Assembly: GCA_014236755.1 (NCBI GenBank)
Contig: JACCKY010000011.1
Location: 6,467 to 30,466 of the forward strand
DNA length: 24,000 nt
Source of the DNA: Candidatus Petromonas tenebris
GTDB lineage: Bacteria; Bacillota; Clostridia; Peptostreptococcales; Caminicellaceae
Reading direction: 5' to 3'
Shown: piece by piece, positions 3,213 to 21,769 of the stretch
Layout: the number at the start of each line of letters is the position of its first letter
How positions within the stretch are numbered: the stretch's first letter is position 1
Translations under genes and position numbers: made by a program
The notes under the pieces: model-generated
The model's database searches: none
The model's input: only the letters and a program-made list of their open reading frames with translations
What the model was told of the DNA's origin: nothing

Positions 3213-5717
3213 GTGAAAGAGCTTAAGGTAAGAAAGTCGATGAGGTTAATAATTGTTGCAGTGACGCTACCATTAATATTTAATTTGTTTTTTATAACAG
3301 TAAATGCAAATAAAAATGGTAAAGAACTGGAAATTAAGGACGATTTTAATGATGATCGAATAGATAAAAGTCTGTGGAACATTGTTTTCGGTTCTTGGAT
3401 AGAAGAAAATCATTTAATTCATTCTGAGGATTATTGGCTTCTTAATCCTAAATATCTTAAACTAAAGGAAAATTTATCAAATTATTCTAAATATGAAATT
3501 TCCCTGGACATTGTACCTACTCCTATTGACTACAATAATGAATACACCGATGGAGGCGTTATTTTCGGACAGAATATAAACAAGGGATATGGAATATATT
3601 TGGATACTGTAGACAAAAGTTTAGTTCTTTATGAAAGGGACAATTTATGGGAAGAGAATTATTTAATAGATAAAACTATAGATGAAATGAAGAAAGATGG
3701 AAGTTACAGGTTAAAGCTTGAACTCAATAAAAATAAAAAGGATAAATATGACCTTGAATTAAAAGTAATAGACCTATCCGACAATAATGTGATTTATTGG
3801 CAGATAAAGGAAAACTTAGATTTACATTTTAATGATCTGTTTCTTTATAGCACGTGGGGTAGATGGTCTTCCTTTGATAACTTCCAGTTAAAAGCTGATA
3901 GAGAAGATGCTTCAGTGTATCCCCCAGCTGATTTTACCGTGATTCAGGAGGGTGATGAGCTTAAACTGACCTGGAAGATAGACGATAGTAAAGTAACGGG
4001 ATTTGAAATTTTTTATTCCGATGATGGATCAATTGATGAAGAGGACATAATTCGTGTAGTTAATAAACATGAAAGAAGTTATAATATTGATGTTAGTGAT
4101 GAAATGATAGAATCAGAAAATATAATATTGGGCATAAGGTCGAAAAAAGGAAATGACAGAAGTAAGATAGTAACTGACTCGATTTTTTTAATGGAAAAAC
4201 CCAAGGAGTTTAAATATATAAACTATGGGGATTTTGTAGAGTTTAGATGGGAACACGTTGAGGGAGCAGTTAAATATATTTTGTATGATGAAAATGGGAA
4301 TCCTCTAACTGATGAAAATGGAAATGTCATTGAGACATTAGAAAACAAAATAAATTATAAAAGTATGAGAGAAAATTTAGACTTCTCCAAGTTTACTGTG
4401 GTGGCTTATAATGTAAATAATGGATACAGCCCACCTTCGGATTACCCGGAAGAAATAGTCCTTGAAAGGGTCGAAAACTTTGAAGTTGTTCAAGAAGGGA
4501 GCCTGTATAGTCTCCAATGGAATAGTTTGCCTTTATCACTTGGATATGAATTATACAGTGGAATAACAGAGGAATCTATGGTAAAGCTCAACCAAGACTT
4601 GATTATTGGAACCAGTTACCAATATAACATTTCAGAGGATGATTACGACAGTACTAGATATTTTAAGATAAGGGCTAAGCTTATTCCGGAGACAGATATA
4701 GAGTATTCGGGCTATTCTGAGGTAATTGGGTTTAGACCTATAAAGAAACCTGAAATAATACAGTCTCCTGGTGATTATGAAGCTGAGTCCGGCGAAACCC
4801 TGATTTATCAAATAAAGGTTTACAAGTCTGATTTACCGGCAGACCTGATCATTGAAGCAGGCGACAATTTAGAACTCACAAATGTTTATTATAATGATAC
4901 ACAACTTCAATTCACAACAGAAGGTCACAAATATAAAATTGATTTGTCAAGAATAGATACGGAGGTACTAGAAGTACAATTAGAAATCAAAGCCGTAAAT
5001 ATGACAGAAGATAATATTAATACGAGTTTTAAAATCTATACTGTAGGATATAAAGATAGTGGAGATAAATTTGTCTATAGAACCGCAACCGTATCATCGA
5101 ATATAACAATAGAGGCTTTAGAAGATGTAGGTAATATTGAACTGGGATTAATAGATAGAGAAGACCAAAGTTTCATTACAGATTCTGAACAGTCAATTTT
5201 TTACGGAGAAGAGTTAGGACTGAAATCAATATTTAATTTTAACTCCGGTAATATATATAATCCTATTATTAAATTTACGCTAGGCTATAATCAACTATTT
5301 AAATTCAAATTTCCGGAACCAGTTATAGTAGATGAAACTGGAAATGGGTTGAATTATAGTGCAGTTTATATAAAAAATGATGATAGCTTGGTGATTTTAA
5401 TAAAACCTGCTCTTAGCGATGATAGATTTTTAAAAAATACTGATTACGAAGTAAAACTTCTGACAAATGTGATATCAATAAGTAAAGATGAGATTAGAGA
5501 TATAGCAGATTCGAAAGGTAAACCATTGTGGAAAATTCCTTATATAATTAGAGATATAATCGAAGATGAAGACAAATTATCTTTAAATATTAAAATGCAG
5601 TTATTATGGAATGCTACTCCGAAAATGACAAATGCCAATGACAGGGACCGCTCATCTCAAATAAGAGAGATTAAGCTAAAGCTTGAAAATATGGATGAAT
5701 TACCTGGAGCCTTTTAA
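3213..5717 (+). CDS. Large secreted multidomain protein: N-terminal anchor/signal, LamG/DUF1080-like lectin fold, three FN3-like modules, unknown C-terminal half
   Basis: GTG start 6 nt after AGGAGG (3201-3206). Hydrophobic N-terminus RLIIVAVTLPLIFNLFFITVNA. DFNDDRIDKSLWNIVFGSW...FDNFQL is typical of concanavalin-like domains (about 3330-3896). Three about 90-aa modules carry the FN3 signature: ..L.W....V.G(F/Y)E(I/L)(F/Y).. at PPADFTVIQEGDELKLTWK..GFEIFYS, FKYINYGDFVEFRWEHVEGAVKYILY and FEVVQEGSLYSLQWNSLPLSLGYELYS (about 3918-4742). Confidence 0.7.
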   Translation: MKELKVRKSMRLIIVAVTLPLIFNLFFITVNANKNGKELEIKDDFNDDRIDKSLWNIVFGSWIEENHLIHSEDYWLLNPKYLKLKENLSNYSKYEISLDIVPTPIDYNNEYTDGGVIFGQNINKGYGIYLDTVDKSLVLYERDNLWEENYLIDKTIDEMKKDGSYRLKLELNKNKKDKYDLELKVIDLSDNNVIYWQIKENLDLHFNDLFLYSTWGRWSSFDNFQLKADREDASVYPPADFTVIQEGDELKLTWKIDDSKVTGFEIFYSDDGSIDEEDIIRVVNKHERSYNIDVSDEMIESENIILGIRSKKGNDRSKIVTDSIFLMEKPKEFKYINYGDFVEFRWEHVEGAVKYILYDENGNPLTDENGNVIETLENKINYKSMRENLDFSKFTVVAYNVNNGYSPPSDYPEEIVLERVENFEVVQEGSLYSLQWNSLPLSLGYELYSGITEESMVKLNQDLIIGTSYQYNISEDDYDSTRYFKIRAKLIPETDIEYSGYSEVIGFRPIKKPEIIQSPGDYEAESGETLIYQIKVYKSDLPADLIIEAGDNLELTNVYYNDTQLQFTTEGHKYKIDLSRIDTEVLEVQLEIKAVNMTEDNINTSFKIYTVGYKDSGDKFVYRTATVSSNITIEALEDVGNIELGLIDREDQSFITDSEQSIFYGEELGLKSIFNFNSGNIYNPIIKFTLGYNQLFKFKFPEPVIVDETGNGLNYSAVYIKNDDSLVILIKPALSDDRFLKNTDYEVKLLTNVISISKDEIRDIADSKGKPLWKIPYIIRDIIEDEDKLSLNIKMQLLWNATPKMTNANDRDRSSQIREIKLKLENMDELPGAF

Positions 5718-6543: not shown

Positions 6544-6550
6544 TCTACTA

Positions 6551-6585
6551 TATAGAGTACTCATGTACTCTATAATTTTGTGTTT
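6551..6585 (+). terminator. Rho-independent terminator after aroK
   Basis: Perfect 10-bp inverted repeat TATAGAGTAC (6551-6560) / GTACTCTATA (6565-6574) with loop TCAT, followed by ATTTTGTGTTT. Confidence 0.55.
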
Positions 6586-6737
6586 AATGAACAAAAACAT
6601 GAAAATAATATAACTTAGAATAAATTGTATTCAAAAGCGTGTTTTTATGTTATGATATTATTGTAATTTTTTAGTAGGAAGTGAAAAATACTAATGAAAA
6701 GATATAAAATACTTGTTTTAAACGGCCCAAATCTTAA

Positions 6738-6753
6738 TATGCTTGTATGCTTG
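6738..6753 (+). repeat. Perfect 8-bp tandem duplication TATGCTTG x2 inside aroQ
   Basis: Copy 1 is 6738-6745 and copy 2 is 6746-6753. Removing one copy restores ..NLNMLGIRE.., the conserved LG.RE motif. Confidence 0.95.
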
Positions 6754-6876
6754 GCATAAGAGAAAAAACATCTATGGAAGGACTACACTTGCTGATATCA
6801 ACTACATGATTGAATGTGAAGCAGAAAGATTAAACATTGAAATCGATTTTTTCCAATCATACGTTGAAGGGAAGTT

Positions 6877-6892
6877 TATAGATCTATAGATC
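6877..6892 (+). repeat. Perfect 8-bp tandem duplication TATAGATC x2 inside aroQ
   Basis: Copy 1 is 6877-6884 and copy 2 is 6885-6892. Removing one copy restores ..GKFIDRIHGA... Confidence 0.95.
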
Positions 6893-7167
6893 GTATACAT
6901 GGAGCTATAAATAGATATCACGGAATCATAATTAATCCCGGGGCTTATACCCATTACAGTATAGCGATAAGGGATGCAATTTCTTCTATAAATTTACCAG
7001 TTACAGAAGTGCATTTATCAAATGTTCATAGCAGAGAAGAATTTAGAAAAAAATCTGTAATTGCTCCTGTATGCATAGGTCAGATAAGTGGATTTAAAGA
7101 GTACAGTTACATACTTGGACTATATGCTCTTCATAATATTTTGAATGATAAAAATGGGGGTATGTAA

Positions 7168-15794: not shown

Positions 15795-16736
15795 ATGTAC
15801 ACATATTCATTAGGTGTTGATACTAGTTGTTATACCACATCTATCGCTGTATTGGATAATAATAGAAAGTTAATTGTGGATAGAAGAAAGCTTCTGGAAG
15901 TAAAAAAGGGAAAGCGAGGTCTAAGACAGTCGGAAGCCCTATTTCAACATATAAATAATCTGCCGGTGTTTTTTAAAGAACTGTCTGATGAAGTTGATAT
16001 TACTAGGATAAGGAAGATTTGCTGTACAAATAAACCAAGAAATGTAGAAAATTCGTATATGCCTGTTTTTACAGCAGGAGTTTCCTTTGCTAAAACTATT
16101 TCTTCTATTTTAGATGTTGAATATGAAGAATATAGTCATCAGGAAGGACATATTGAAGCCGCTAGGTGGTCAGCTCAAACATTGGATAGCGATAACTTTT
16201 TAGCCCTTCACATTTCCGGTGGAACTACAGAGATTGTAATGGCAAGGAAAAATAACAATAGATATAATATAGATATCATTGGAGGCACTAAGGATATTAG
16301 CGCAGGTCAACTCATAGATAGGTCAGGGGTGGCTATGGGATTGAGTTTTCCATCTGGAAAGGAAATGGAAAAAATTTCCCAAAGAGGGACCTTGGGTAAA
16401 ATCAAACTGCCTATAAGTACTGATGATACCTATATTAATTTTTCCGGTGTTGAAACTTTTGTAAAGAGAATGATTCAAAGAGGAAATGAAAACAATGGTG
16501 ACATAGCAATAGCTTTATTCGAATGTATATGCAAGTCTTTATATTACATTATTTATAAGGCCTGTATAAAAACCGAAATTAATGAAGTTTTATTAGCAGG
16601 AGGAGTTGCATCAAATAAATTTATAAGAGATAATTTATATAGGGATTTAAGCTCAAAGGGTATTAATTTGCATTTTGGTGAAGAAAAATTTTGTACTGAT
16701 AATGCAGTAGGTACTGCTCTATTAGGTATATATTAA
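15795..16736 (+). CDS. Short TsaD/Kae1-like (peptidase M22 / ASKHA-fold) paralog
   Basis: GVDTSCYTTSIAV (cf. TsaD GIETSCDET), HQEGHIEAA (HxxGH metal motif), ALHISGGTTEIV, LLAGGVASNKFIR and FCTDNAVGTA all align in order with TsaD/Kae1. At 313 aa the protein is shorter and divergent. Confidence 0.7.
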   Translation: MYTYSLGVDTSCYTTSIAVLDNNRKLIVDRRKLLEVKKGKRGLRQSEALFQHINNLPVFFKELSDEVDITRIRKICCTNKPRNVENSYMPVFTAGVSFAKTISSILDVEYEEYSHQEGHIEAARWSAQTLDSDNFLALHISGGTTEIVMARKNNNRYNIDIIGGTKDISAGQLIDRSGVAMGLSFPSGKEMEKISQRGTLGKIKLPISTDDTYINFSGVETFVKRMIQRGNENNGDIAIALFECICKSLYYIIYKACIKTEINEVLLAGGVASNKFIRDNLYRDLSSKGINLHFGEEKFCTDNAVGTALLGIY

Positions 16737-19971: not shown

Positions 19972-20415
19972 GTGACATACTTAAAAGAGGTTTTTAACAA
20001 TGATGTTTTTAATGTATCGCTTACCTCCTGGTTTATAGCACAGACATTAAAGGTAATTATTACACTGCTAACTCAAAAGAAGCTAAACTTATATAGATTC
20101 GTAGGTTCTGGTGGAATGCCTAGTTCTCATTCTTCTATGGTAATGGGACTATCTACCGCTGTAGGCCTTAAAACTGGATGGTCATCTATACAATACGGTT
20201 TATCTTTAGTTTTTGCACTAATTGTTATGTATGATGCTTCTGGAGTAAGACGTGCAGTAGGAAAACAGGCAATTATATTAAATAAAATATTAGAGGACAA
20301 GCAAAAGCATAAACATATTGGAGAGGGGCGTCTCAAGGAACTAGTAGGTCATACCCCTGTTGAGGTATTTGCTGGTGCATTGCTGGGCATATTAATTGCC
20401 AATATTATGATTTGA
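19972..20415 (+). CDS. Divergent PAP2-family membrane protein (DUF212/YuiD-like, acid phosphatase/haloperoxidase-related)
   Basis: 147 aa, multi-TM. GGMPSSHSSMV and YDASGVRR..G...L..L.GHTP.EV..GA.LG are the family motifs. GTG start after AGGAGG. Confidence 0.75.
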   Translation: MTYLKEVFNNDVFNVSLTSWFIAQTLKVIITLLTQKKLNLYRFVGSGGMPSSHSSMVMGLSTAVGLKTGWSSIQYGLSLVFALIVMYDASGVRRAVGKQAIILNKILEDKQKHKHIGEGRLKELVGHTPVEVFAGALLGILIANIMI

Positions 20416-20440
20416 AAAACCAATTAATATATGTTATAAT
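20412..20440 (+). promoter_or_regulatory. Near-consensus sigma-A promoter with extended -10, driving the structured RNA
   Basis: -35 TTGAAA (20412-20417, overlapping the PAP2 stop codon TGA), exact 17-nt spacer, TGt + TATAAT (20432-20440). Predicted start at about 20447. Confidence 0.6.
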
Positions 20441-20746
20441 ATCTTTCACACTTGAGGGGTGCAGTATTCTAGTCAGAGCTGCTAATTCTGAAGGCGGGGC
20501 TAAAAATCCGTCAAAGGGCACATCGATGAAGTTCCTGGTACTGGCTTGTGACGCCCAGTCAGGGGTTGGTGCTGGGAGTAAGGATTAGGGGGCGATCCAC
20601 AATGGCATGTGGGCGATGACCCTCTATCCGTGGAGACCTAAATTAACATCAGCTGTTGATTTAGGATTAACCTGCAGTGTGGTGGTTCGTCTGCTACATG
20701 CAGTGTAGCCTGCCTTGAGTGGAATAGGTGGATGAATAAGATTCTG

Positions 20747-20776
20747 CTTTTATACTATGGGCCCATAGTATAAAAG
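20747..20776. repeat. Perfect 30-nt palindrome (15-bp arms, GGGCCC centre) inside the RNA
   Basis: CTTTTATACTATGGG|CCCATAGTATAAAAG. The second half is the exact reverse complement of the first. Confidence 0.95.
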
Positions 20777-21036
20777 TATTGCTATTCTAAACCTATTCTG
20801 CAAAAGAGGCTAGGAATTAGCGTGCCTGTCGAGGAAAACTCCTAGACTGTTCCATTATGGAGGTATATTAAGGATTACAGTGCGGACTTAGTGGTAATCT
20901 AGTTTTATATTTGGCGACAATATAAATACGGGTTTAAAGGGAAACCGCTGATCTGGCGACAGAACAGTACTCGTATGGGAAATCCTACTAGACCTAAGCC
21001 GCAAAGTTTACTTAATATACTACCCTCGAGTGAGAT

Positions 21037-21067
21037 ATACTGATGGCTTTTGCTATCAGTATTTTTA
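21037..21067 (+). terminator. Terminator-like hairpin at the 3' end of the structured RNA
   Basis: ATACTGATGGC (21037-21047) / GCTATCAGTAT (21052-21062) forms 11 bp with one G-U pair, loop TTTT, then TTTTTA. The short U-tract suggests a partial terminator or processing/stability hairpin. Confidence 0.5.
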
Positions 21068-21121
21068 TAATATAGGGAAACTTTACTTCCTATAACTATA
21101 AAGAAATAGACTAAGGTGTGT

Positions 21122-21769
21122 ATGAACTTGAAAGAAAATGACCGAAAAAATAATAGAATAATTAGGTTTATAAAAAATTTTAAAAGGTATAATACTAAAT
21201 GGGTCATTAATATAACAATATTAACATTTGGATTAGCAATAGCTATAAGCTTTATTTCTGAAGCATTACTCAGAAATGTTTCAATATATATAGCCTTTGT
21301 AGTTTTAATTGTTATAGTGTTTATAGGAATACTATTTGATTTGATTGGAATTGCTGTAGCTACAGCTAAAGAAAAACCTTTTAACGCAATGGCATCAAAG
21401 AAAATTCATGGTGCCAGGTATGCAATAAAGCTGATTAAAAATGCTGGTCCCGTATCAAATTTCTGCAATGATGTTATTGGAGACATAGCCGGTATAATTA
21501 GTGGAGCTGCGGGAGCAATAATATTAATACAAATAAGTGAGATTTATGATAATATTAATACAGCTGTATTTAGTATAATACTGAGCGGGATAGTAGCTGC
21601 CATAACTGTTGGAGGGAAGGCTTTAGGAAAGGAAATAGCCTTAAGAAATTCCAAGGAAATAGTTTTTTTTGTAGCTAAAATATTATTTTGGCTTAATGCG
21701 AAACTAAGAATAGACATACTTCCTGAAATTAAAAGAAAGCAGAAATTTGGAAAAGATAAAAGAAAGTGA
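21122..21769 (+). CDS. oapA: OLE-associated membrane protein OapA candidate
   Basis: About 215 aa with a basic N-terminus, four hydrophobic segments (about aa 31-52, 56-82, 120-140 and 148-168 of the listed ORF) and a lysine-rich tail. A DxxxD motif (NDVIGD, 21470-21484) lies at the start of TM3. The gene is immediately downstream of the RNA and upstream of dxs. ATG at 21122 lies behind AAGG; the in-frame GTG at 21116 is the alternative. Confidence 0.7.
   Translation: MNLKENDRKNNRIIRFIKNFKRYNTKWVINITILTFGLAIAISFISEALLRNVSIYIAFVVLIVIVFIGILFDLIGIAVATAKEKPFNAMASKKIHGARYAIKLIKNAGPVSNFCNDVIGDIAGIISGAAGAIILIQISEIYDNINTAVFSIILSGIVAAITVGGKALGKEIALRNSKEIVFFVAKILFWLNAKLRIDILPEIKRKQKFGKDKRK

Follow-up and report, generated by a model that had tools for sequence, protein, structure and literature searches.

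OLE RNA is reportedly a large, membrane-associated bacterial non-coding RNA that was described in 2006. To our knowledge, it is among the largest and best-conserved bacterial non-coding RNAs without a known biochemical function. In this study, we analysed a 24,000-nucleotide (nt) stretch of a contig of Candidatus Petromonas tenebris (JACCKY010000011.1; referred to below as the window, in whose numbering all positions are given) and focused on the interval between a DUF212 (divergent PAP2) gene and oapA, the gene for the OLE-associated membrane protein. Matches to Pfam and NCBIfam families give the order of the neighbouring genes as aroK, a broken aroQ, pepP, efp, spoIIIAA-spoIIIAH, an Asp23/yqhY-family gene, nusB, a TsaD/Kae1-like paralogue, folD, xseA, xseB, ispA, the DUF212 gene, ole, oapA, dxs and tlyA. 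The typical OLE gene cluster (nusB, folD, xseA, xseB and ispA before the RNA, dxs and tlyA after it, and yqhY/Asp23 nearby) is thus present. The original prediction, which had been made from the window alone, placed xseA-xseB-ispA upstream and oapA-dxs-tlyA downstream of OLE; this synteny was correct, with the DUF212/PAP2 gene inserted as it had noted. The host lineage (Bacillota, Clostridia, Peptostreptococcales, Caminicellaceae) lies within the Bacillota, as is expected of an OLE host; such hosts are typically anaerobes or extremophiles. We are highly confident that the interval is the ole gene of this Candidatus Petromonas species and encodes a full-length OLE RNA.

The interval was compared with the Rfam OLE covariance model, which the original prediction had named as the check on its proposal of an OLE homolog. 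The model (RF01071) matched 20440-21042 of the + strand at 558.4 bits (E 1.9e-161), far above its gathering score of 50. The match is untruncated, running over model positions 1-616 of 616, and its length of 603 nt agrees with the approximately 600 nt of known OLE RNAs. When the OLEs of cultured species (Caminicella sporogenes, Maledivibacter halophilus, Wukongibacter baidiensis, a Caloranaerobacter, Halalkalibacter wakoensis and a Paenibacillus) were scored likewise, they reached a comparable 514-555 bits. Of the 154 consensus pairs with letters on both sides in the model alignment, 148 are canonical: 76 match the consensus exactly, 13 carry a one-sided change and 59 a two-sided change. Very high sequence conservation at about a quarter of the positions is typical of OLE, and the highly conserved (upper-case) positions of RF01071 are identical in 240 of 249 cases. 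The A+U-rich host has rewritten the sequences of the OLE stems with their pairing kept.

The interval also stands out in composition and folding. Its G+C content is 45%, against 32% for the window on average and 30-36% for the two flanking genes, and the earlier count of 34 G+C among the 60 nt of 20521-20580 was exact. Positions 20447-21069 (623 nt) fold to -248.6 kcal/mol, whereas dinucleotide-preserving shuffles fold to -175.7 +/- 5.9 kcal/mol (z = -12.3). No open reading frame (ORF) of at least 60 amino acids (aa) was found on the + strand between the DUF212 gene, which ends at 20415, and the oapA frame, which opens at 21116. The earlier statement that 20416-21115 is free of ORFs therefore holds for the + strand; on the - strand, an ORF of 100 aa (20905-21207) overlaps the interval. 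This ORF was rejected as a gene, having no Pfam match at E up to 0.1.

The structure was further examined by comparison with related loci. Twenty OapA homologues were aligned, and 80 loci were retrieved from GTDB species genomes of Clostridia and Bacilli. OLE lies directly upstream of oapA in all 78 loci having upstream sequence, as judged by nhmmer with the window RNA as the query; the remaining two start at a contig end. The window RNA and 74 full-length OLEs were aligned with MAFFT, and the Rfam structure was projected onto this 75-sequence alignment, on which all covariation results below rest, via the row of the window. Standard pairs occupy 85.1% of the alignment cells, compared with 41-46% when the 3' partners were slid by 1-3 columns. 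Two-sided changes occur in 129 of the 164 pairs, and the covariation score is 0.467 against 0.11-0.15 in the slid controls. None of 500 shuffles reached any of the observed measures of pairing or covariation. OLE RNAs have an ornate secondary structure of some 25 helices, and the Rfam helices are strongly supported by covariation here, including helices 20-26 of domain 2, which are 87-100% paired with many two-sided changes. As MAFFT ignores structure, the variable stems P7 and distal P9 are in part wrongly aligned and their scores are reduced, a bias that works against the OLE structure and not for it.

The first 53 nt at the 5' end are unpaired in the Rfam model. In our alignment, however, four long-range helices are supported there independently of the model, namely P1, P2, P3.1 and P3 (Table 1). 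P2 and P3.1 together are paired in 97.9% of the cells, against 22-47% in the slid controls, and five of their pairs show two-sided changes. In P1, the pair G20457-C21025 stands where most sequences have U-A, and this compensatory pair accounts for two of the nine mismatches at conserved positions. The four helices agree with the published layout, in which P3 encloses P4-P9 (domain 1) and P1, P2 and P10-P15 make up domain 2. The helix names used here were taken from the text of the papers, without their figures. P3, the helix that encloses domain 1, has been proposed to span the membrane (PMC12265935).

Eight hairpins had been read from the sequence beforehand, and six of them correspond to elements of the unit: 20597-20612 (P6.1), 20637-20665 (P7), 20672-20703 (P8), 20721-20799 (within P9), 20904-20926 (P13) and 21037-21062 (the terminator hairpin). 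The other two were not retained. The pairing at 20534-20563 is in the wrong register, since both the consensus and the free-energy fold pair 20532-20552 with 20558-20578 around the loop GCCCA. The hairpin at 20810-20845 (CTAGGA/TCCTAG) lacks covariation support: its score was reached by 53 of 500 shuffles, 43 of the 75 sequences are unpaired at one position, and the invariant, palindromic CUAG alone accounts for its pairing of 85%. Its arms are instead used by the covarying long-range helices P3 and P2.

Table 1. Features of the ole locus and of the predicted OLE RNA (window positions; pairing percentages and two-sided changes from the 75-sequence alignment)
Feature	Position	Strand	Description	Support or remark
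DUF212 (divergent PAP2) gene	19972-20415	+	Directly upstream of ole, outside the RNA	Pfam PF02681, E 8e-50
ole promoter (predicted)	20412-20440	+	-35 TTGAAA 20412-20417, 17-nt spacer, TG 20432-20433, -10 TATAAT 20435-20440	11/12 consensus
OLE RNA, full-length type	20440-21042	+		RF01071 match
P1	20454-20460 with 21022-21028	+	GAGGGGU with ACCCUCG	95% paired; two-sided changes in 6/7 pairs
5' strands of P2 and P3.1	20461-20476	+	Segment holds UCUAGU palindrome	
P2	20461-20465 with 20846-20850; 20469-20472 with 20842-20845	+	GCAGU with ACUGU; invariant CUAG with CUAG	
P3.1	20474-20476 with 20826-20828	+	CAG with CUG	
P3	20481-20489 with 20813-20821	+	5' strand GCUAAUUCU	Helix 3: 89% paired; two-sided changes in 6/7 pairs
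P4 hairpin	20493-20512	+	A-rich loop CUAAAAAU (20500-20507; dimer bridge L4)	Helix 4: 97% paired
P4a/J4a-5 segment	20513-20531	+	AAAGGGCACAUCGAUGAAGUU; contains CAUCGAUG palindrome (20521-20528)	Identical to Rfam consensus
P5/P5.1	20532-20578	+	19 base pairs (bp), loop GCCCA (20553-20557)	Helices 5-6: 94% paired, 12 two-sided pairs
P6/P6.1	20582-20629	+	UGGC in loop (20603-20606)	P6.1: 99.7% paired
J6/7	20630-20636	+		Identical to consensus
P7	20637-20665	+	About 11-12 bp, 5-nt loop	Model alignment; Rfam consensus about 17 bp
P8	20672-20703	+	13 bp	Helix 11: 85% paired, 11 two-sided pairs
P9 long arm	20712-20810	+	33 bp in four segments, palindromic loop GGGCCC (20759-20764)	Model alignment
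3' strands of P3, P3.1 and P2	20813-20850	+	P3 20813-20821, P3.1 20826-20828, P2 20842-20850	Alignment
Small GAG/CUC hairpin	20831-20841	+	Amid the 3' strands of P3, P3.1 and P2	
Domain 2	20851-21021	+	Hairpin 20851-20861; P13 20905-20925; P14/P14.1 20926-20976; GGGAAAUCC 20977-20985	
Nested long-range stems of domain 2	20862-20872/21011-21021, 20881-20885/20999-21003, 20898-20903/20987-20992	+		
P13	20905-20925	+	8-bp stem, bulged U 20910, GNRA tetraloop GCGA 20914-20917	Predicted OapB-binding hairpin
Terminator-like hairpin	21037-21069	+	AUACUGAUGGC-UUUU-GCUAUCAGUAU (21037-21062), then UUUUUAU	11 bp and T run
oapA, OLE-associated membrane protein	21116-21769	+		100% identical to MDK2918930.1 (Candidatus Petromonas sp., metagenome-assembled genome)

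The RNA is also predicted to have a promoter and a terminator of its own. Transcription would start at about 20447-20448 from a dedicated extended -10 promoter, the -35 box of which (20412-20417) overlaps the TGA stop codon of the DUF212 gene. A perfect TATAAT lies upstream of OLE in 54 of the 78 loci, and a TATAAT-like box (at least 5/6) with TG in 57, mostly 8-20 nt before P1; the background rate of TGnTATAAT is 0.1 per kb. This conserved promoter agrees with the proximal ole promoter of B. halodurans, which was shown experimentally and for which the 5' ends were mapped at the start of P1 (PMC3413148). OLE RNAs are characterised by such a proximal promoter and by a transcript that is abundant and stable. 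At the other end, the terminator-like hairpin starts eight nt past P1 and has a folding free energy of -18.2 kcal/mol (z = -6.4). Together, the two elements are predicted to delimit an RNA of approximately 620 nt, and the unit 20447-21067 drawn in the original prediction is nearly exactly the one that lies between them. No convincing promoter belonging to oapA itself was found between 21063 and 21115, and we therefore infer that some transcripts read through the hairpin; such partial read-through would also set the excess of the RNA over oapA mRNA. No terminator was found between the DUF212 gene and the ole promoter, so that read-through from the upstream operon into ole is possible as well.

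These last two observations would also fit a transcript in which OLE is not a unit of its own and is cut from a long polycistronic RNA extending from nusB to tlyA, with the 3' hairpin acting as a processing or stability element or as a protein-binding site. The OLE cluster of Halalkalibacterium (Bacillus) halodurans is also made as one polycistronic RNA, and the hairpin has a stem of conserved sequence, an uncommon trait in a plain terminator. However, in most relatives the distance between the near-consensus extended -10 promoter and P1 is fixed, the equivalent promoter of B. halodurans raises OLE expression more than 100-fold (PMC3413148), and the hairpin is followed by a T-rich tail in 20 of 21 loci. 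We consider it unlikely that processing alone explains the RNA. A transcription unit of its own and processing from a polycistronic RNA are not mutually exclusive, and both can hold.

The conservation of the terminator hairpin deserves separate description. The sequence of its stem is conserved just 3' of OLE and on the same strand in 21 Clostridia loci, counting the window. The others (L001, L003, L004, L006-L010, L012, L014-L019, L046, L078 and L085-L087) come from Caminicella, Wukongibacter, Maledivibacter, Anaerosolibacter, Alkaliphilus, Anaeromonas, Caloranaerobacter, Dethiothermospora, Anaerosalibacter and Geosporobacter, and from metagenome-assembled genomes (MAGs) of Tissierellaceae and other groups. 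These counts rest on a direct pattern search and on manual extraction of the stems. The hairpin has the form (G/A)CUGAU(A/G)G(C/U), a loop of 3-7 nt and (G/A)CUAUCAG(C/U), that is, the CUGAUAGC/GCUAUCAG type, with a variant in L015 (CUGAUGG…CCAUCAG). Identity per position in the core arms is 67-100%, compared with 29-57% in the upstream flank. The loops are variable, and pairing of the stem is maintained through G-U wobbles and compensatory changes. In Caminicella sporogenes, a cultured relative, the 20-nt core of the hairpin (CUGAUGGC-UUUU-GCUAUCAG) is the same as that of the window. Elsewhere in the approximately 660 kb of locus sequence examined, the motif gave three loose matches only, and it was found in none of the Bacilli loci sampled.

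The hairpin may simply be a terminator inherited within the clade. The constraint on the sequence of its stem nevertheless hints at a second role. We tentatively propose, as an idea that is more doubtful than probable, that in Clostridia of the Peptostreptococcales/Tissierellales type the hairpin (G/A)CUGAU(A/G)GC, loop, GCUAUCAG(C/U) and U-tract is a clade-specific, sequence-constrained 3' module of the OLE transcript with a function beyond termination. Possible roles are those of a protein-binding or stability element, or of a regulated attenuator that sets the ratio of OLE to oapA. If this were true, the DUF212/PAP2 gene of the same clade, whose stop codon overlaps the ole -35 box, would along with ispA and dxs link OLE to the metabolism of polyprenyl phosphates. 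An alternative pairing of the hairpin arms with P14.1 (GCUGAUC) was considered as the source of the constraint and was unsupported on inspection of the alignment, in which only GCUG is conserved there. A search of the 3' flank against Rfam at a permissive threshold gave chance-level matches only (17 bits or less), and no family covers the hairpin. Our literature search, which did not cover the 2006 discovery paper, found no mention of the hairpin or of an OLE terminator. A scan of metagenomes for the hairpin pattern returned at least 120 matches, and among the matches listed none had an OLE; the scan is uninformative on whether the hairpin is exclusive to OLE because very many chance matches are expected from the information content of the pattern. 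The conserved sequence of the terminator stem is the one mildly new point of this analysis.

Further observations concern the junction between ole and oapA in other loci. In Bacilli, a recurrent UACAUA(A/U) motif lies 5-15 nt after P1 (e.g. in L029, L030, L032, L039, L044, L047, L055 and L062, and further in L067, L074, L076, L077 and L079). Bacilli usually have a short spacer between ole and oapA (often 30-60 nt), and most of the loci with the UACAUA motif showed no terminator hairpin. This suggests that the junction of the Bacilli differs from that of the Clostridia clade. In two Anaeromonas loci, L004 (~3855-3930) and L007 (~3862-3935), an extra copy of the 5' arm (AAAGCUGAUAG) lies about 25 nt past the U-tract of the hairpin; it is possible that this copy pairs with the 3' arm and the U-tract to form an alternative structure.

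Sequences corresponding to the elements by which OLE RNA is recognized by its proteins could also be located in the window RNA. Binding of OapB depends on a GNRA loop and a single-nucleotide bulge (PMC7936274). Both determinants are present in P13, with a single bulged U, and a second GCGA loop lies on P14.1. The k-turn bound by OapC is formed by J4a/5 with J5/6 or J6/7, and it has been described together with the OapA sites (PMC9723947, PMC12286853, PMC12265935). Its putative strands J4a/5 (20513-20531) and J6/7 are identical to the consensus here, and J5/6 lacks one U; this comparison was made at the level of whole strands. Both palindromes reported as contacts of OapA (PMC12265935) are present, UCUAGU in P2 and CAUCGAUG at 20521-20528. 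Recent work proposes that OLE is a dimeric RNA that spans the membrane, and the bridges seen by cryo-electron microscopy (cryo-EM) are an A-A contact of L4, an inter-molecular kissing interaction of L5 with L6 and a self-kissing interaction of L9. At the level of sequence, all of the corresponding loops are present, namely L4 CUAAAAAU, L5 GCCCA, L6 UGGC and the palindromic L9 GGGCCC. The UGGC of L6 is complementary to the GCCA/GCCCA loop of L5. In P9, nearly all pairs differ on both sides from the G+C-rich consensus.

The protein partner lies where it is expected. The gene directly downstream of ole encodes a four-helix membrane protein of 215 or 217 aa with Lys/Arg-rich termini. Its only Pfam match was to the CNNM transmembrane domain (PF01595; 31 bits, cut-off 28.4). 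An AlphaFold model built with 20 homologues has a mean predicted local distance difference test score (pLDDT) of 79.5 and shows long helices. The six best fold matches of this model in the PDB are all CNNM/CorB/CorC transmembrane domains (MtCorB and CorC), with a Foldseek probability of 0.96-1.0. Four transmembrane helices, basic termini and a CNNM-like fold without CBS or CorC domains are the features expected of OapA. The start codon of oapA is ambiguous between GTG 21116 (217 aa, ORF table) and ATG 21122 (215 aa, public annotation). The ATG lies only 3 nt past the Shine-Dalgarno-like sequence AAGGUG, and a TTG at 21128 is better spaced.

Several observations weigh against a canonical, working OLE-OapA unit. 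Within the RNA, six consensus pairs are non-canonical, P1 forms five of its seven pairs in the consensus register, P7 is shorter than the consensus, and J5/6 lacks one U, as it does in many Clostridia relatives. Only 4 of the 11 pairs of the terminator stem are G-C, and its U-tract is interrupted. The fold match of OapA is weak (E-value 0.007-0.4, TM-score 0.38-0.51) and the OapA profile found no match among PDB sequences, so that the link to CNNM/CorB comes from fold comparison only. Neither oapB (ybzG) nor oapC (ybxF) was found in the window or in the 20-kb locus (approximately 31 kb covered), and neither is expected in the cluster. Moreover, the organism is known only from a MAG, and the functional model is extrapolated from other species.

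The short P7 raises the question of whether this is a reduced OLE of the variant 1 or variant 2 type. In variant 1, P7, P8 and P9 are shorter and the OapB site is lost; in variant 2, P7 and P8 are absent; both occur in genome-reduced lineages. P7 of the window RNA has only about 11-12 bp and a 5-nt loop, and part of the P7 of the model is deleted in the alignment. However, neither P8 (13 bp) nor the long P9 arm (33 bp, GGGCCC loop) is reduced, both the GNRA loop and the bulged U of P13 are retained, and the model was matched over positions 1-616 at 558 bits. The P7 stems of the Clostridia relatives in our alignment are similarly short, and a short P7 is the norm in related free-living Clostridia. 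The definitions of the variants call for a joint shortening of P7-P9 with loss of the OapB site, or for a complete lack of P7 and P8. The RNA is therefore assigned to the full-length type, since P8, P9 and P13 are complete in spite of the short P7, and a variant 1 or variant 2 OLE is very unlikely. That the interval is a decaying, non-functional OLE remnant or an overlooked coding region, as a broken gene nearby in the same MAG (aroQ, with two frameshifts) and the 100-aa - strand ORF might suggest, is hardly conceivable, given that 96% of the consensus pairs and 96% of the conserved nucleotides are intact with 59 compensatory pairs, that promoter, terminator and oapA are intact, that the - strand ORF has no Pfam match and overlaps sequence varying by paired substitutions and not by codon position, and that the identical ole sequence occurs in four independent assemblies, the locus being found in an NCBI MAG, JGI metagenomes and a Logan assembly.

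The wider neighbourhood of this full-length ole gene has several features of its own. Past tlyA, the locus continues with argR, recN, spoIVB and spo0A, as seen in the other assemblies; the locus includes the spoIIIA operon and spo0A. Here and in 21 related loci, which are all of Clostridia, ispA and ole are separated by a DUF212 gene, an arrangement seen in none of the Bacilli loci sampled. Our literature search found no link of OLE with DUF212, PAP2 or yuiD, the 2006 discovery paper not being covered by it. The original prediction had called the ole interval the only long ORF-free stretch of the window. This was incorrect, since a second gap of 624 nt (6544-7167) has no ORF of at least 60 aa. 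This gap holds a class II 3-dehydroquinase gene (aroQ) from ATG 6694 with two frameshifts (~6745 and ~6885), the frame-corrected translation of which matches PF01220 (E 3e-56); the broken gene is either a pseudogene or an error of the MAG assembly.

Other genes of the window were noted in passing. The TsaD/Kae1-like protein of 313 aa encoded between nusB and folD (15795-16736) scored 156 bits against an NCBIfam TsaD cut-off of 296. As this is well under the NCBIfam TsaD cut-offs, the protein is probably a diverged paralogue rather than the actual t6A enzyme. Two large ORFs, 59-2338 (759 aa) and 3213-5717 (834 aa), matched no Pfam family at the default threshold, and the second gave a weak match to DUF3048_C only (E 0.0014). 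A gene with a copper amine oxidase N-terminal-like domain lies between them. Among the related loci, two come from records titled as other phyla: L041 (Pseudomonas sp. ISL-84) and L069 (MAG: Actinomycetota bacterium) are typical ole-oapA loci. In L041, the neighbouring xseB, ispA and dxs genes are of Bacillota type, and the locus is very similar to that of Bacillus sp. J33 (L031). Both assemblies are probably mislabelled or contaminated, and it has been remarked in the literature that the few OLE matches outside the Bacillota look like transfer or assembly errors.

Comparison with known systems helps to place the locus. The OLE of H. halodurans C-125, the experimental model of the class, belongs to the same family (RF01071), and the two RNAs share all named helices as well as conserved nucleotides. 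At both loci, ispA precedes ole, oapA follows it directly, dxs and tlyA come next, and a proximal promoter (predicted in the window) lies a few nt before P1. In sequence, both RNAs carry the GNRA loop and bulge of P13 for OapB and the palindromes for OapA, and the window RNA also has the putative k-turn strands for OapC. In contrast to that alkaliphilic Bacillus relative, the host here belongs to a presumably anaerobic lineage of Clostridia, and the stems are A+U-rich with compensatory changes. P7 is shorter here, J5/6 is one U shorter, and the DUF212/PAP2 gene lies between ispA and ole. The conserved-sequence terminator hairpin and the 73-nt spacer between ole and oapA also differ from the UACAUA motif and the usually short spacer of the Bacilli sampled. 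The OLEs of Clostridium acetobutylicum and C. botulinum, seen as dimers by cryo-EM in 2025, come from the same class Clostridia. All elements of their dimer bridges are present here; the likeness is one of loop elements, and dimerisation of the window RNA is a prediction.

With variants 1 and 2, the window RNA shares the conserved core nucleotides, and its P7 is somewhat shortened as in variant 1. Unlike in the variants, P8, P9 and the OapB site are intact, and the host is a spore-forming bacterium whose gene complement is normal, not a genome-reduced gut symbiont. A further comparison concerns the MpfA/CorB/CNNM divalent-cation transporters, which have been proposed as all-protein counterparts of OLE-OapA. 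OapA of the window shares the CNNM transmembrane domain with them and its predicted fold is nearest to MtCorB/CorC, but it is without the CBS pair and the CorC domain; that OLE RNA fills their role is an idea from the literature.

Taken together, the locus is compatible with the following working. Transcription would begin at the extended -10 promoter and mostly stop at the hairpin and U-tract (21037-21069), and some polymerases would read through the hairpin so that oapA is expressed. Judging from the work on H. halodurans and Clostridium OLEs, the RNA would fold into domain 1 (P3-P9) and domain 2 (P1, P2 and P10-P15). By analogy with the same RNAs, it might dimerise through the A-rich L4 loop, the L5-L6 kissing interaction and the palindromic L9 loop. 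OapA would anchor the RNA at the membrane, OapB would bind P13, and OapC would bind the k-turn. OLE RNA might then act as a regulatory and scaffolding partner of OapA, a CNNM/CorB-type domain without the CBS and CorC regulatory domains, and the two together may tune the handling of divalent cations and adaptation to stress (alcohol, cold, Mg2+ and carbon source). With moderate confidence, and by analogy with the other species, we consider this partnership with OapA to be the likeliest function of the RNA.

In this study, the element was identified as an OLE RNA gene that is canonical and apparently functional. It is accompanied by its OapA partner and lies in the expected lineage and the expected operon. 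The gene is of an already known kind, since approximately 2,800 OLE genes have been catalogued across the Bacillota, and as an ordinary member of that class it adds little that is new. The locus leaves the question of OLE function unchanged and no more testable than before. Its value for annotation is that a 700-nt gap that appears empty should be labelled ole. Its flanking features (a conserved promoter, a terminator with a conserved stem sequence and a neighbouring DUF212 gene) may be useful, and Caminicella sporogenes could be used to map the transcript ends of a Clostridia OLE. The results presented here indicate that an OLE-OapA unit, complete and canonical, is carried by one lineage of the Caminicellaceae, which is known from MAGs and metagenome assemblies; this fits the published distribution of the RNA.

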